This document shows positions 9,446 to 18,437 of a DNA stretch of 32,000 bases, one piece after another. Every line of letters begins with the position of its first letter. Position 1 is the stretch's first letter. The notes below the pieces were generated by a model. It did no database searches. It saw only the letters and a list, made by a program, of their open reading frames with translations, and had not been told where the DNA came from. This stretch comes from an uncultured Clostridium sp. (lineage in GTDB: Bacteria; Bacillota; Clostridia; TANB77; CAG-508): positions 3,597-35,596 of the forward strand of contig CAMSMU010000012.1 in assembly GCA_947061115.1 (NCBI GenBank), in the 5' to 3' direction. A program made the position numbers and the translations under genes.

Positions 9446-9521
9446 GGGTGACTAGCTCAGTTGGTAGAGCAGCTGACTCTTAATCAGAAGGTCCGGGGTT
9501 CGACCCCCCGGTTGCCCACCA
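9446..9521 (+). tRNA. tRNA-Lys (anticodon CTT), CCA encoded
   Basis: Hand-folded cloverleaf: acceptor GGGTGAC/GTTGCCC, D arm GCTC-AGTTGGT-AGAGC, anticodon loop CTCTTAA, T arm CGGGG-TTCGACC-CCCCG, then ACCA. Confidence 0.9.
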
Positions 9522-15611: not shown

Positions 15612-16477
15612 TTAACTTATTTTTTCTATTTCAGGATTTTTCTTTATAAATTTTTCATACATTTCTCTCCAAAAGTAATTTGGTGTTTCATCTTTAGTAT
15701 TAATTCCATTCTTGCTAGCTTCTTCTTCCACAAAATCTACAAATTCTTGTGTATAATTTCTATTATAATTTAGATTATTTAATAATAATTCTGACCATTC
15801 TTTTACTTTTATATGATAATCACTACTTAATAAATATTTTTTACATATTCATAATTATATTCTATAGTTTTATTCTCATAATATATATTTCCATTATCTA
15901 TACAAATTACTTCATATCTAAACTTTTTTCCATGTGAAATTGGCATACCTACACTTCCAGGATTTATAAAGATTTTATCTTTATAATTAACATATGTATT
16001 TATATGTGTATGTCCCATTAAATATATATCACAATCAAAGTCTTTAATAATTCTATTAAACATTTCATACGAATCTTAAAAAATAGAATCTCTAGTATTA
16101 TATGGCGATCTATGGAAAAAGCAAATTCTTTTTCCCTCTATTTCTACTATTTTATATTTTTCTAGCCCTCTTATATAATCCATATTCCTTTTTTCTATTA
16201 TATCATATGTATATGTATATTATTCCATCTATCCTGTCTTTTCAATCCATTTATATTTTCTGAATCCATATTAGCAACCATTTCTTCTTTGTTACCATAT
16301 ACAACATTTTTACTTAATTCTTTTATCTTATTTAAAACATTATTACAATCAAATCTATCTAAAATATAATCACTAAAAAAATAAATTCATCTATTTTTTC
16401 ATTTTTAATTCTTCTAAAACTTTGTTAAATGCATACATATTAAAATGTATGTCTGATATAATTGCAATTTTTTTCAT
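15612..16477 (-). pseudogene. Metallophosphoesterase (YfcE/MPP-type) pseudogene with several frameshifts and in-frame stops
   Basis: From ATG 16477 (AAGGAGAAG SD) it reads MKKIAIISDIHFNMYAFNKVLEELKMKK*. A second frame reads IDEFIFL.., and a third reads GDYILDRFDCNNVLNKIKELSKNVVYGNKEEM...HMI*. Later comes ...LEKYKIVEIEGKRICFFHRSPYNTRDSIF*DSYEMFNRIIKDFDCDIYLMGHTHINTY (track ORF 15827-16063), plus a further out-of-frame C-terminal piece down to 15612. The DIH, GD, GN and GHTH motifs appear in order but in different frames. Confidence 0.75.
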
Positions 16478-16648: not shown

Positions 16649-16677
16649 TTGACAAACATCTAGTTATATAGTACAAT
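16649..16677 (+). promoter_or_regulatory. Consensus sigma-A promoter of the tRNA Lys-Glu-Thr operon
   Basis: TTGACA (16649-16654), a 17-nt spacer, then TACAAT (16672-16677), about 55 nt upstream of the first tRNA. Confidence 0.7.
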
Positions 16678-16732: not shown

Positions 16733-16808
16733 GAGTCATTAGCTCAGTTGGTAGAGCACTTGACTTTTAATCAAGTTGTCCGGGGTTCGATTCCCCGATG
16801 GCTCACCA
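16733..16808 (+). tRNA. tRNA-Lys (anticodon TTT), CCA encoded
   Basis: Acceptor GAGTCAT/ATGGCTC, D arm GCTC-AGTTGGT-AGAGC, anticodon stem CTTGA/TCAAG with loop CTTTTAA, T arm CGGGG-TTCGATT-CCCCG, then ACCA. Confidence 0.9.
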
Positions 16809-16857
16809 AATATTTAGGAGTTAAGCTCAAGCTTAATTCCTAAACATTTACATTAAA

Positions 16858-16932
16858 GGCCCCTTGGTCAAGCGGTTAAGACATCGCCCTTTCACGGCGG
16901 AGACATGGGTTCGATTCCCGTAGGGGTCACCA
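16858..16932 (+). tRNA. tRNA-Glu (anticodon TTC), CCA encoded
   Basis: GGCCCCTTGGTCAAGCGGTTAAGACA is a typical Glu body. The anticodon stem is TCGCC/GGCGG with loop CTTTCAC. The acceptor 3' strand is AGGGGTC, followed by ACCA. Confidence 0.9.
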
Positions 16933-16935
16933 TAT

Positions 16936-17247
16936 GCCACTTTAGCTCAGCTGGTAGAGCAACTGACTTGTGGGATAGGTAATAATATTATTACTTTGAA
17001 CTATCTTGCACCTTCATATGGAAACGTATGAAGTGGACATCGCTAATTCGGGGAATACTAAGTAGAAATATATGTTAATCCCGAGCTAGAAAAGAAATTT
17101 TCGAGTGTAGAGACTTTATACGATGTACCTAAGGTTTTATACTATGGTAAAGAGAAAGTCCAGACCGCAAACATTATTATAATGGCAATGAAAATTGTAG
17201 TGGTATGAATCAGTAGGTCGTCCGTTCAAATCGGACAAGTGGCTCCA
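16936..17247 (+). tRNA. tRNA-Thr (anticodon TGT) interrupted by a 236-nt intron between positions 36 and 37; exons 16936-16971 and 17208-17247 (CCA encoded)
   Basis: The 5' half is GCCACTT-TA-GCTC-AGCTGGTA-GAGC-A-ACTGA-CTTGT. The 3' half is AA-TCAGT-AGGTC-GTCCG-TTCAAAT-CGGAC-AAGTGGC-T-CCA. Joined, they give a perfect 73-nt cloverleaf with anticodon loop CTTGTAA. The AGAGCAACTGACTTGTAATCAGTAGGT core matches what I recall of Firmicute tRNA-Thr(UGU). Confidence 0.85.
16972..17207 (+). ncRNA. Group I (IC3/Azoarcus-like) intron in the tRNA-Thr anticodon loop, no internal ORF
   Basis: The 5' splice site follows U (16971) and the intron ends in G (17207). IGS GCA 17008-17010 pairs with exon UGU (U-G wobble at the splice site), and TT 17006-17007 can pair with exon AA 17208-17209 (P10). 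P2 is 17012-17020/17025-17033, capped by GAAA. P3 is ACATCG 17037-17042 / CGATGT 17121-17126. P4 is TCGGG 17048-17052 / CCCGA 17080-17084, within AATTCGGGGAA and AATCCCGAGC (P/Q-like elements). P6 is GAAAA-GAAA-TTTTC, 17089-17102. P7 is GACTTT 17112-17117 / AAAGTC 17155-17160, within GTAGAGACTTTA (R-like) and AAGAGAAAGTCC (S-like). Confidence 0.8.
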
Positions 17248-17311
17248 TTATTAAAGGTCAGTAATTTTAGTCAAACTATTATTATTGGCTTTTATTTTTA
17301 TCGAGGTGTTT

Positions 17312-17698
17312 ATGAAATGTTTAAATTGTAATGTTCCCTTAATAAAAAATAGTAAATTTTGCTCTATAAAATGTCAGAAAGAATATCAATATAATATTTA
17401 TATTAATAATTGGAAAAATGGTAAAGAATCAGGATTAAGAGGTAATTATCAAACCTCTATGTATTTAAAAACTTATCTCTTTAAAAAATATAATAATAAA
17501 TGTAATAAATGTGGTTGGGGTGAAAAAAATAAATATACTGGAAATATCCCTTTAGAAATTGAACATATAGATGGTAATTATATGAATAATGCTGAAAGTA
17601 ATCTATTATTACTTTGCCCTAATTGTCATTCGTTAACAAGTACATATAAAGGAGCTAATAAAAATGGTAGAAAATCAAGAAAAAAATATTCGAAATAA
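17312..17698 (+). CDS. Free-standing HNH endonuclease with N-terminal zinc-ribbon
   Basis: MKCLNCNVPLIKNSKFCSIKC, then CNKCGW...EIEHIDGNYMNNAESNLLLLCPNCH (HNH motif). A GAGGTG SD precedes ATG 17312. The 3' end overlaps the next gene's start by 35 nt. Confidence 0.8.
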   Translation: MKCLNCNVPLIKNSKFCSIKCQKEYQYNIYINNWKNGKESGLRGNYQTSMYLKTYLFKKYNNKCNKCGWGEKNKYTGNIPLEIEHIDGNYMNNAESNLLLLCPNCHSLTSTYKGANKNGRKSRKKYSK

Positions 17699-18407
17699 AG
17701 TTGCTATTGTAACTGGTGGCTCACGAGGAATTGGAAAATCTATAGTAGAAAAGTTATCTCTTAATGGTTACAATGTAATATTAAATTACAATAACTCTTA
17801 TCAAGATGCTCAAAATATCGCAAACAATAATTCTAATATTTCTATTTTTAAGGCAGATGTTTCTAATTATGATGATGTAAAAAATCTTGTAAATTTTGCT
17901 ATTACTAAATTGGGACATGTTGATTTACTTGTTAATAACGCTGGTATAGATTTAATTAAAACTATAAATAATACCAGTATAAATGATTTTGATAATATAT
18001 TAAAAACTAATTTATATTCTGCTTTTTACACTTGTAAAGAAATTGTTCCTTATATGGTAAAAGAAAAAAGCGGACATATTATAAATATATCTTCTATATG
18101 GGGCATTATAGGGGCATCTTGTGAGTCAGCTTATTCTATTAGCAAAGCTGGTTTAGATGCATTAACTAAATCTTTAGCAAAAGAATTAGGACCTTCTAAT
18201 ATTTTAGTTAATAGTATTGCTCCAGGGATTATTGATACAGATATGAATAAATTTTTAAGTGATGATGAAAAGAAACAAATAATAAATGAAATTCCTTTAG
18301 AAAAGTTGGGAAATACTTGCGACATTGCAGATTGTGTATTATTTTTAGCAAATTCTAATTATATTACAGGACAAATTATTCAAATAAATGGTGGATGGAA
18401 TATTTAA
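17664..18407 (+). CDS. Short-chain dehydrogenase/reductase, FabG-like (3-oxoacyl-ACP reductase family)
   Basis: TGGSRGIGKS Rossmann motif, NNAG, catalytic S...YSISK, PGIIDTDM. An AAGGAG SD lies upstream of ATG 17664. Confidence 0.8.
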   Translation: MVENQEKNIRNKVAIVTGGSRGIGKSIVEKLSLNGYNVILNYNNSYQDAQNIANNNSNISIFKADVSNYDDVKNLVNFAITKLGHVDLLVNNAGIDLIKTINNTSINDFDNILKTNLYSAFYTCKEIVPYMVKEKSGHIINISSIWGIIGASCESAYSISKAGLDALTKSLAKELGPSNILVNSIAPGIIDTDMNKFLSDDEKKQIINEIPLEKLGNTCDIADCVLFLANSNYITGQIIQINGGWNI

Positions 18408-18437
18408 ACCAGTAAGTAAATTCTTACTGGTTTATTC

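Follow-up and report, generated by a model that had tools for sequence, protein, structure and literature searches.

An Azoarcus-like group I intron in a tRNA-Thr(UGU) gene of Clostridia-labelled bacteria and the HNH nuclease gene beside it

An insert of 236 nt, identified here as a group I intron, divides the gene for tRNA-Thr(UGU) in a 32-kb stretch of DNA from an uncultured Clostridium sp. (GenBank assembly GCA_947061115.1, contig CAMSMU010000012.1). This stretch, hereafter the window, was the part of the genome visible for analysis; the coordinates given below are its own, and features lie on its forward strand unless stated otherwise. The split gene is the third of a Lys-Glu-Thr tRNA operon, and 64 nt downstream of it starts a gene for a small HNH nuclease, which an earlier note on this DNA had not mentioned. 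Based on the anatomy of the insert, its likeness to the tRNA-Ile intron of Azoarcus and its covariation among relatives, we consider it very probable that the intron is functional and of the IC3 type. The HNH protein is most likely its homing-endonuclease partner or the relic of one.

Reviews and the GISSD database give four classical tRNA hosts of bacterial group I introns, Leu.3Ug, Arg.5Ug, fMet.2Ug and Ile2.5Ug. According to one survey, 5,292 such introns have been mapped and the number of tRNA/site classes has been raised to 21 (Williams 2020, bioRxiv 10.1101/2020.01.27.920355); the seed alignment of that survey includes Rba53.Thr.5Ug, Mti5.Thr.3Ug and Pgr210.Thr.2Ug. The earlier note knew of no tRNA-Thr host, a view that these three seeds have overtaken. 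An intron in tRNA-Thr is thus not new in kind. At most, the intron described here adds to the family a new member that is fixed, in Clostridia-labelled bacteria of one clade, between nucleotides 36 and 37 of tRNA-Thr(UGU).

The split tRNA-Thr gene

The 5' exon (16936-16971) comprises positions 1-36 of the tRNA and ends in the anticodon UGU (...CUUGU). The 3' exon (17208-17247), of 40 nt (AAUCAG...CCA), comprises positions 37-73 and the encoded CCA. Exons of 36 and 40 nt join into a 76-mer, which ARAGORN folds into a standard cloverleaf and calls tRNA-Thr(tgt). With introns allowed, the same program reports tRNA-Thr(tgt) i(37,236) in the native sequence, so that the two halves and the 236-nt insert described in the earlier note are exact in their coordinates. 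The joined, intron-less gene reads ...GCAACTGACTTGTAATCAGTAGG.... Default ARAGORN and the Rfam tRNA model, applied to the window, miss the split gene and find only tRNA-Lys(UUU), tRNA-Glu(UUC) and a separate tRNA-Lys(CUU) at 9446-9521. By its own statement, tRNAscan-SE 2.0 is not designed for detecting these introns.

Identity and class of the insert

The insert (16972-17207) has no open reading frame (ORF) and a GC content of 34%. It starts with GGGAUAG and ends with UAUG, the last nucleotide being the omega-G at 17207; the preceding exon ends in U at 16971, in agreement with the earlier note. A sensitive local scan of 16900-17300 with the Rfam model RF00028 gave a match to 16988-17182 over the full model length, with a score of 34.0 bits and an E-value of 3.9e-7. 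The gathering score of this model, 50, is not reached, and a scan of the whole window at the gathering threshold reported no intron. The RF00028 check proposed in the earlier note therefore came out positive as a full-model match and negative by the gathering score. For calibration, Massilia Ile-type, Rhizobium Leu-type and Nostoc tRNA introns were scored at 57-59 bits, while the Rhizobium tRNA-Arg(CCU) intron (39.3 bits) and a tRNA-Thr intron homologous to that of the window (locus L107, 32.7 bits) both fell below the threshold. Williams (2020) states that no RF00028 seed is bacterial and used cutoffs of 18-20 bits. Because of these calibration scores and cutoffs, we regard a sub-threshold score as normal for part of the bacterial tRNA intron family. 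The lack of a significant RF00028 hit, which the earlier note would have taken as a refutation, is then a poor test, since the Rhizobium tRNA-Arg(CCU) intron is also sub-threshold.

The insert and the published Azoarcus seed, Aol6.Ile2.5Ug, have in common the blocks AAUUCGGxGAA, CCGAGC, GUGUAGAGAC, ACCUAAGG...CUAUGGU and AGUCCA, with the core in the 3' half of the insert; the Azoarcus strings given in the earlier note were correct. Global identity to the published seeds is 70-80% for every class and discriminates poorly between classes, so no donor class is assigned. Features of the IC3 subgroup are present, namely the anticodon-loop site 36/37, a compact length of 236 nt and a simple P5 hairpin without P5abc, and the core blocks are shared with the seeds of Azoarcus, Arg.5Ug and Leu.3Ug, listed as IC3 by GISSD as Williams (2020) reports. 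The subgroup was assigned by these features and shared blocks rather than with a subgroup-specific covariance model. A search of a phage GenBank collection matched only tRNA portions. The evidence supports identification of the insert as an Azoarcus-like bacterial tRNA group I intron of the IC3 type, situated between nucleotides 36 and 37 of tRNA-Thr(UGU).

Homologous introns

Matches to the pattern GTGTAGAGACT-N11-ACCTAAGG were obtained on 21 viral contigs and in at least 120 species-representative genomes. Among the matches listed, most introns interrupt tRNA-Leu(UAA), tRNA-Arg(CCU) and the CAU-anticodon tRNAs of Proteobacteria, as read by intron-aware ARAGORN, and 10 other species genomes have an insert of 227-241 nt at the same bond of tRNA-Thr(UGU). 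In nine of these ten metagenome-assembled genomes (MAGs), which are labelled Clostridia, Clostridiales or Clostridium, the intron is 82-91% identical to that of the window. Relatives of the host genome carry the NCBI labels Clostridia/Eubacteriales. The tenth MAG (L107), labelled Gammaproteobacteria, has an intron identity of 69%, so the 36/37 class in tRNA-Thr(UGU) is not confined to Clostridia-labelled genomes. The L107 intron (571-880 of that locus, minus strand) has 234 nt, a higher GC content and a minimal P1, and lies in a tRNA cluster of the order thrU-tyrU-glyT-thrT.

Anatomy and covariation

The window sequence and these ten relatives were aligned on a structure model, built by hand, that comprises the tRNA stems and helices P1, P1a, P2 to P9, P9a and P9b. 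Of 94 model pairs, 40 have changed on both sides, compared with 5-9 in controls in which the 3' partners were slid by 1-3 columns. Standard pairs occupy 98.1% of the alignment cells, against 36-40% in the slid controls, and none of 500 shuffles attained the observed pairing and covariation values. The acceptor, D and anticodon stems of the tRNA are 100% paired and show compensatory changes, while four of the five T-stem pairs have changed on both sides. P2, P3, P6, P9a and P9b have several compensatory pairs each. This anatomy, its conservation and covariation, and the gene neighbourhoods described below are direct observations.

Helix P1 (16969-17010) is formed by the exon UGU and GGGAUAG (16969-16978) with CUAUCUU-GCA (17001-17010) and is 97% paired. 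The guide GCA (17008-17010) faces the anticodon, and U36 (16971) forms a wobble with G17008 at the 5' splice site, as the earlier note had proposed; UGU and GCA are the same in 11 of 11 homologues. Three pairs of the P1 extension have changed on both sides. The extension encloses a hairpin, P1a (16979-16994), in which three of six pairs have done so; the AT palindrome that the earlier note had read as an expansion of the P1 region is thus a covarying hairpin. Both the extension and P1a are missing from the introns of L107 and L202.

P2 (17012-17033) is a hairpin of 9 bp with a GAAA tetraloop; it is 99% paired, six of its nine pairs have changed on both sides, and it is present in the minimum free energy (MFE) fold. 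P3 is made of ACAUCG (17037-17042) and CGAUGU (17121-17126), is 98.5% paired and has four of six pairs changed on both sides, with CAUCG/CGAUG in the window compensated as GGCGG/CCGCC in L107. The P4-P5 domain (17048-17084) consists of P4 (UCGGG/CCCGA), which is 100% paired and has one swap of U-A to A-U, and P5 (ACUAAG...UAUGU), capped by GAAA, whose outermost pair is GC, AU, GU or CG across homologues. We take the P5 string to be a variant of the 11-nt receptor motif of Azoarcus. P6 (17086-17105), with a GAAA loop, is 98.7% paired and five of its seven pairs have changed on both sides. GAAA loops therefore cap not only P2 and P6, where the earlier note had seen them, but also P5 and P9b.

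P7 is made of GACUUU (17112-17117) and AAAGUC (17155-17160) and, by analogy, would be the guanosine-binding helix. It is invariant among the Thr introns. In the wider set of 139 introns with the core pattern, 138 are complementary at the fifth pair of P7, where A-U, G-C, U-A and C-G all occur. The P8 hairpin (17127-17148) contains CCUAAG...UAUGG, the 11-nt GAAA-receptor motif; its pairs are invariant and equal those of the Azoarcus seed, and its 5' half was fixed by the search pattern. P9 is a three-way domain (17164-17204) of P9 (ACCGC/GUGGU), P9a (CAUUA/UAAUG) and P9b (GCAAU-GAAA-AUUGU), which are 98%, 88.5% and 100% paired, with one, three and three pairs changed on both sides, respectively.

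When the intron is folded by itself, its MFE structure contains P1/P1a, P2, P4-P5, P6 and P9/9a/9b (z = -2.1). The core order P3-P4-P6-P7-P8, including the P3/P7 pseudoknot, is supported by covariation for P3, P4, P6 and P7 and by identity to Azoarcus for P8. P3, P4 and P7 lie where the earlier note had placed them, and the compensatory support that it asked for in homologues was found. The exon U-1, the GCA guide, the omega-G and the core strings are invariant in the alignment. All 11 Thr introns end in ...UAUG, while relatives that bear an ORF end in ...UAUG or ...GAAG. The proposal of an IC3-like group I intron in a Clostridia-like genome thus agrees with the covariation, the Azoarcus core and the taxonomic labels of the relatives.

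Retention of the split gene

The tRNA precursor is identical at 312 of 312 positions in four independent metagenome assemblies. In all, about 40 contigs were reached through the HNH gene, the pattern scan and the gene for a short-chain dehydrogenase (SDR) that adjoins the HNH gene, and each syntenic context has Lys-Glu-Thr with the intron. The adjoining SDR protein is down to 51-58% identity in species representatives, yet the exon stems stay perfectly paired. Because of this wide retention beside a diverged SDR, and of the compensated ribozyme and tRNA stems, the tRNA-Thr gene does not behave as a pseudogene. It is strongly implied by these comparisons that the tRNA is spliced and functional, and the distribution of the intron is best explained by fixation and vertical inheritance within one clade of Clostridia-labelled bacteria, which have a low GC content and come from gut and rumen.

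The HNH nuclease gene

The free-standing gene downstream of the split tRNA (17312-17698) encodes a protein of 128 amino acids with an N-terminal treble-clef zinc ribbon and the HNH motif CNKCGW...EIEHIDGN...NLLLLCPNCH. Its end overlaps the start of the SDR gene (17664-18407; Pfam adh_short, E 5e-56), which is syntenic with the split tRNA-Thr in relatives and is followed by a terminator-like hairpin (18405-18434). The beta-beta-alpha-metal motif is present with its catalytic His, its conserved Asn residues and its paired CxxC zinc ligands; C64-x2-C67, H85 (EHIDGN), N97 and C102-x2-C105-H106 are the same in all 14 aligned HNH sequences. The window protein scores 18.5 bits against PF01844, for which the cutoff is 21.4. 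Of the aligned family members, 13 of 14 match PF01844 (E down to 9.6e-6) and all 14 match PF13392, and many database relatives of the window protein have a precomputed PF01844 match. Neither a sequence nor a profile search found a relative of the protein in the PDB.

In L028, L038, L116, L142 and L157-L162, the HNH gene is found in the interval from the split tRNA-Thr to the SDR gene, with 63-74% identity. It is in fragments in L131 and L035 and absent from L091 and L053, while L323 and L324 have lost all of it but a C-terminal remnant, which overlaps the start of the SDR gene. Every one of these loci, whatever the state of its HNH gene, has the intron. Since intron and tRNA are intact where HNH is deleted, the protein is not a required splicing factor, and a maturase role was rejected on the same natural deletions. 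The piece that is kept after deletion (L035, L323) is always the C-terminal one, by the SDR start, which in the window is the region of overlap (17664-17698); presumably it carries translation signals of the SDR gene.

The HNH family and intron-encoded copies

Relatives in the HNH family number at least 1,733 in the databases, at least 540 in JGI metagenomes and at least 544 on IMG/VR viral contigs. We classified 160 loci by the position of HNH relative to tRNA genes. In 17 of these, the gene lies 56-115 nt downstream of a split tRNA-Thr(UGU), as in the window, and is followed by the SDR gene except in L171 and L209; the same placement was found in five species genomes. Unsplit tRNA-Thr(UGU) is adjoined downstream by HNH in 25 loci and upstream in 26. 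These 51 loci are mostly dense, phage-like tRNA arrays, in which tRNA-Thr(UGU) makes up 11% of the tRNAs.

Intron-encoded copies also exist. In L189, L196 and L202, tRNA-Thr(UGU) is split at 36/37 by an intron of 590-629 nt homologous to that of the window, and the HNH ORF is inserted in loop L5, so that its last codons read through P5'/P4'/P6. In a test independent of ARAGORN, seven HNH ORFs run directly into ...UAUGGCAAUCCCGAGC...GUGUAGAGACU; these seven comprise the metagenome loci L189, L196, L199 and L202 and the IMG/VR viral loci L243, L245 and L246. For L243 and L246, the ARAGORN intron-mode call of the host as Tyr(gta) was rejected, as the 3' exons are Thr-like. Isotypes from this mode are unreliable for long introns, and its labels His(atg) and Phe(aaa) were not trusted and not used. 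L184 has the same exons as L189 and an intron of 223 nt that lacks the ORF, HNH being free-standing a few tRNAs downstream, and in L194 the HNH gene is on the opposite strand and faces the split tRNA-Thr at its 3' end.

A tree built by neighbour joining, which has no support values, places the window-type proteins together with the intron-encoded ones and those of L184/L194, nested among free-standing lineages adjacent to tRNA-Thr(UGU), with the copies beside other tRNAs farther off. The anticodon arm CUGA(C/U)U-UGU-AAUCAG is common to 37 of 37 split tRNA-Thr(UGU) genes. The unsplit tRNA neighbours of HNH have diverse arms, none with the exact sequence of the window.

Other members of the family were seen in further settings. 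In L249 (2863-3150) and L303 (2851-3150), HNH homologues lie directly upstream of other split tRNAs with ORF-less group I introns, the 5' exon in L249 ending in ...CAGCCTTC. Genes of further sub-lineages are repeatedly found within about 5-25 nt of Ala(UGC), Met(CAU), Arg(CCU) or Gln(UUG) genes, a hint that sub-families of the nuclease may have specialised on different tRNA genes. In the metagenome tRNA arrays L204 and L207, which have HNH homologues, ARAGORN reports suppressor-type tRNAs with the anticodon tta, consistent with phages that use recoded stop codons.

Related introns and neighbouring features

In L087 (2247-2510; MAG 'Clostridia bacterium RGIG8562'), a group I intron of 176 nt interrupts tRNA-Lys(CUU), and 152 nt of its core align with the Thr intron of the window at 82% identity. 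Given an omega-G, the splice site is at 35/36, and the guide differs, GGAG pairing with CUCU. The tRNA-Lys(CUU) gene of the window (9446-9521) has near-identical exons and is uninterrupted. This comparison suggests that one intron lineage has moved between tRNA genes and has re-adapted its guide. In L089 (3355-4054, minus strand; MAG labelled Romboutsia), a tRNA, putatively Asn(gtt) by its ARAGORN label, is split by an intron of 616 nt with a related 3' core and an ORF of 165 amino acids for a PD-(D/E)XK endonuclease (PF11645, E 9.6e-24). A second, unrelated nuclease family is therefore found in Firmicute tRNA introns. The IMG/VR loci L009, L011, L014, L016-L018, L020 and L025 contain the exact Azoarcus-type core string, with no split tRNA found by ARAGORN; these cores may belong to introns of protein genes, to introns with long ORFs or to tRNAs that have diverged too far.

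The first two genes of the operon are tRNA-Lys(UUU) (16733-16808) and tRNA-Glu(UUC) (16858-16932), both reported by ARAGORN and scored at 74 and 63 bits, respectively, by the Rfam tRNA model. The order Lys-Glu-Thr is kept in all relatives with sufficient flank. A consensus scan found a promoter-like site, TTGACA-17-TACAAT, upstream of the operon (16649-16677; 11 of 12 matches), which would serve to transcribe it, and a near-identical TTGACA...TACAAT is present in L323. The spacer between tRNA-Lys and tRNA-Glu (16813-16844) has a 14-bp hairpin that was flagged as terminator-like, inside what appears to be a single operon; L323 likewise has a hairpin-forming spacer there, and the hairpin may be a signal for processing and not a terminator. 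On the minus strand, an ORF of 78 amino acids (15827-16063) matches YfcE/Metallophos_2 phosphodiesterases only in their C-terminal portion, at positions 101-141 of the 158 in the profile. Another assembly, which has an identical Ham1 protein (L003), has a Metallophos_2 gene of 151 amino acids at the corresponding place, and the copy in the window may be truncated or frameshifted.

Discussion

The splicing chemistry, like the activity and the target of the nuclease, is what we infer from the comparisons above. In the precursor, the anticodon UGU would pair with the guide GCA (17008-17010), forming P1 with its U-G wobble. A free guanosine held by the P3-P8 core would attack after U36. G17207 would then take the same site, the freed 3'-OH of U36 would attack after G17207, and U36 would be joined to A37 to give the mature tRNA-Thr. 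The receptor motifs of P8 and P5 probably take up the GAAA loops of P2 and P9b, as in Azoarcus.

The window intron resembles the Azoarcus tRNA-Ile intron in its insertion after anticodon nucleotide 36, in the three-pair helix of exon and guide with a U-G wobble, in P2 with a GAAA loop, in the core strings, in the lack of an ORF and in a size of about 200-240 nt. It differs in its host, tRNA-Thr(UGU), in its guide, GCA instead of GUG, and in its P7, GACUU/AAGUC versus GACUA/UAGUC. P1 is longer by 7 bp and has the extra hairpin P1a, P9 is a three-way junction and the GC content is 34%. The window intron agrees with the Thr.5Ug class, with the seed Rba53.Thr.5Ug, in isotype, loop position 5 (36/37), U-1 and omega-G. 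The exon of that seed ends in ggU, read as Thr(GGU), whereas the window has UGU.

An ORF-less intron with a free-standing nuclease next door fits the model of collaborative (trans) homing, known from the psbA intron of cyanophage S-PM2 with F-CphI and from the T4 nrdB intron with mobE. By analogy, tRNA-Thr alleles without the intron would be cut by the HNH nuclease, a gene that has the intron would be protected by it, and HNH and intron would be co-converted. The literature describes the nuclease target in published collaborative homing as the insertion site of the intron, and pairs of intron and free-standing nuclease as proposed precursors of composite mobile introns (Hausner 2014; PMC2790892, PMC6083498). 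The present case differs from these systems in that the host is a tRNA gene of a bacterial chromosome, the putative nuclease is of the zinc-ribbon HNH type, and the HNH family also has ORF-in-intron and intron-less states. The tRNA-fMet intron of Synechocystis, likewise a bacterial tRNA group I intron with a homing endonuclease, encodes a PD-(D/E)XK enzyme with specificity towards the region of the tRNA-fMet anticodon (Bonocora & Shub 2001, as cited in Hausner 2014). The PF11645 ORF of L089 is of the same kind, while the window nuclease is an HNH protein whose gene lies outside the intron. On encoded or neighbouring nucleases, Williams (2020) says only that introns longer than about 400 bp may hold genes. 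A literature search for HNH-bearing tRNA introns or phage tRNA-Thr introns found nothing specific, most subscription-journal papers being outside its coverage.

The HNH gene has traits of the homing type, namely a sporadic distribution, degeneration (L091, L053, L035, L131, L323/324) and seven intron-encoded copies. Its lineage is tied both to tRNA-Thr(UGU) genes and to this intron, and 51 homologues adjoin an unsplit tRNA-Thr(UGU), a tRNA that accounts for only 11% of those in the loci concerned. A fuller account can be offered tentatively, and we hold it as somewhat doubtful. In this account, one HNH lineage and one site, 36/37 of tRNA-Thr(UGU), preserve the three stages proposed for the birth of a mobile intron: the nuclease free-standing by an intron-less target in phage tRNA arrays, free-standing by an ORF-less intron (window, L184), and as an ORF in L5 (L189, L196, L202, L243, L246). 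The chromosomal pair would have been delivered from a phage tRNA array by cleavage of the near-identical tRNA-Thr gene of the host and co-conversion and then fixed, with the nuclease now decaying in one lineage after another. Over a long stretch, the tRNA-Thr exons of the phage-like arrays are identical to those of the bacterial gene, and such arrays are a plausible source of the chromosomal copy.

Several observations weigh against a functional intron with a homing partner. The intron scores below the RF00028 gathering threshold, and P7 and P8 do not vary in the Thr set, partly since the search pattern fixed both. No intron-less allele was met in this chromosomal context in about 40 syntenic contexts, the SDR homologue search having reached only relatives of 69-100%; homing in the clade of the window would therefore be historical at best. 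The HNH gene lies beside other tRNAs only in 61 loci and has no tRNA within 400 nt in 22, so the family as a whole is one of tRNA-array nucleases and is not specific to introns. Where present, HNH is better conserved than SDR (63-81% versus 51-75% in the same loci), which could point to a host function rather than to selfish mobility. The HNH tree was built by neighbour joining and has no support values. The contrast between the arms of split and unsplit tRNAs is consistent with an intron shielding a site that can be cleaved, but phylogeny confounds it.

The main rival accepts the intron as real and takes the HNH gene as an incidental free-standing homing endonuclease of tRNA arrays, which landed beside tRNA-Thr by its own target preference and played no part in the history of the intron; we consider this unlikely, if still to be taken seriously. 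T5 F-Tfl enzymes are free-standing homing endonucleases of phage tRNA clusters, and most HNH homologues are arranged in the same way, free-standing in dense tRNA arrays, beside other tRNAs only or beside unsplit tRNA-Thr (the 61 and 51 loci above). Nuclease genes of phage tRNA clusters such as T4 SegB are known to drive inheritance of the tRNA region (PMC2330249). SegB differs in being a GIY-YIG enzyme, and there is no intron in the SegB and T5 F-Tfl systems. The rival agrees with the persistence of the intron wherever HNH is deleted. It accounts poorly for the seven homologues encoded within the P5 loop of a homologous intron, for L184 and L189, which have identical exons with the ORF outside and inside the intron, respectively, for the grouping of the intron-associated proteins in the tree, and for the position of HNH at the 3' end of the split tRNA even when it is inverted (L194).

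That the HNH protein has been domesticated, as a maturase-like splicing cofactor or in another host function co-expressed with the tRNA operon and SDR, is improbable. Its conservation relative to SDR, the invariance of all catalytic and zinc ligands and the lack of a terminator-like site between the tRNA operon and HNH are in its favour, but intron and tRNA are intact in the six loci (L091, L053, L035, L131, L323, L324) where HNH is lost or reduced. To our knowledge, no HNH maturases are known for group I introns. Least probable is that the insert is a decayed, non-splicing relic in a tRNA-Thr pseudogene while another tRNA-Thr(UGU) elsewhere does the work, for, despite a sub-threshold RF00028 score and a very AT-rich ribozyme, no fewer than 11 species and more than 40 contigs retain the split gene next to proteins at about 51-58% identity, compensatory changes hold the helices of ribozyme and tRNA, and U-1, GCA, omega-G and the core strings are invariant.

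A functional intron with a past or present HNH partner thus remains our probable reading of the locus. As an intron, it joins a family for which 21 tRNA/site classes had already been recorded; what is new is that the adjoining HNH gene belongs to a family whose members, in phage-like DNA, lie within this same intron. As tRNAscan-SE is not designed for such introns, and default ARAGORN and the Rfam tRNA model miss the gene, tRNA-Thr(UGU) will seem to be missing from genomes of this gut clade, in which it is probably the principal tRNA for ACA codons. The intron also offers an unusually AT-rich (34% GC) ribozyme of the Azoarcus type with an extended P1 for the study and engineering of small ribozymes. 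If HNH cuts the intron-less tRNA-Thr gene, these loci would form a natural, tractable series for the merging of an ORF-less intron and a free-standing nuclease into a mobile intron and, if the fuller account is true, a likely example of transfer from phage to chromosome through a conserved tRNA gene.

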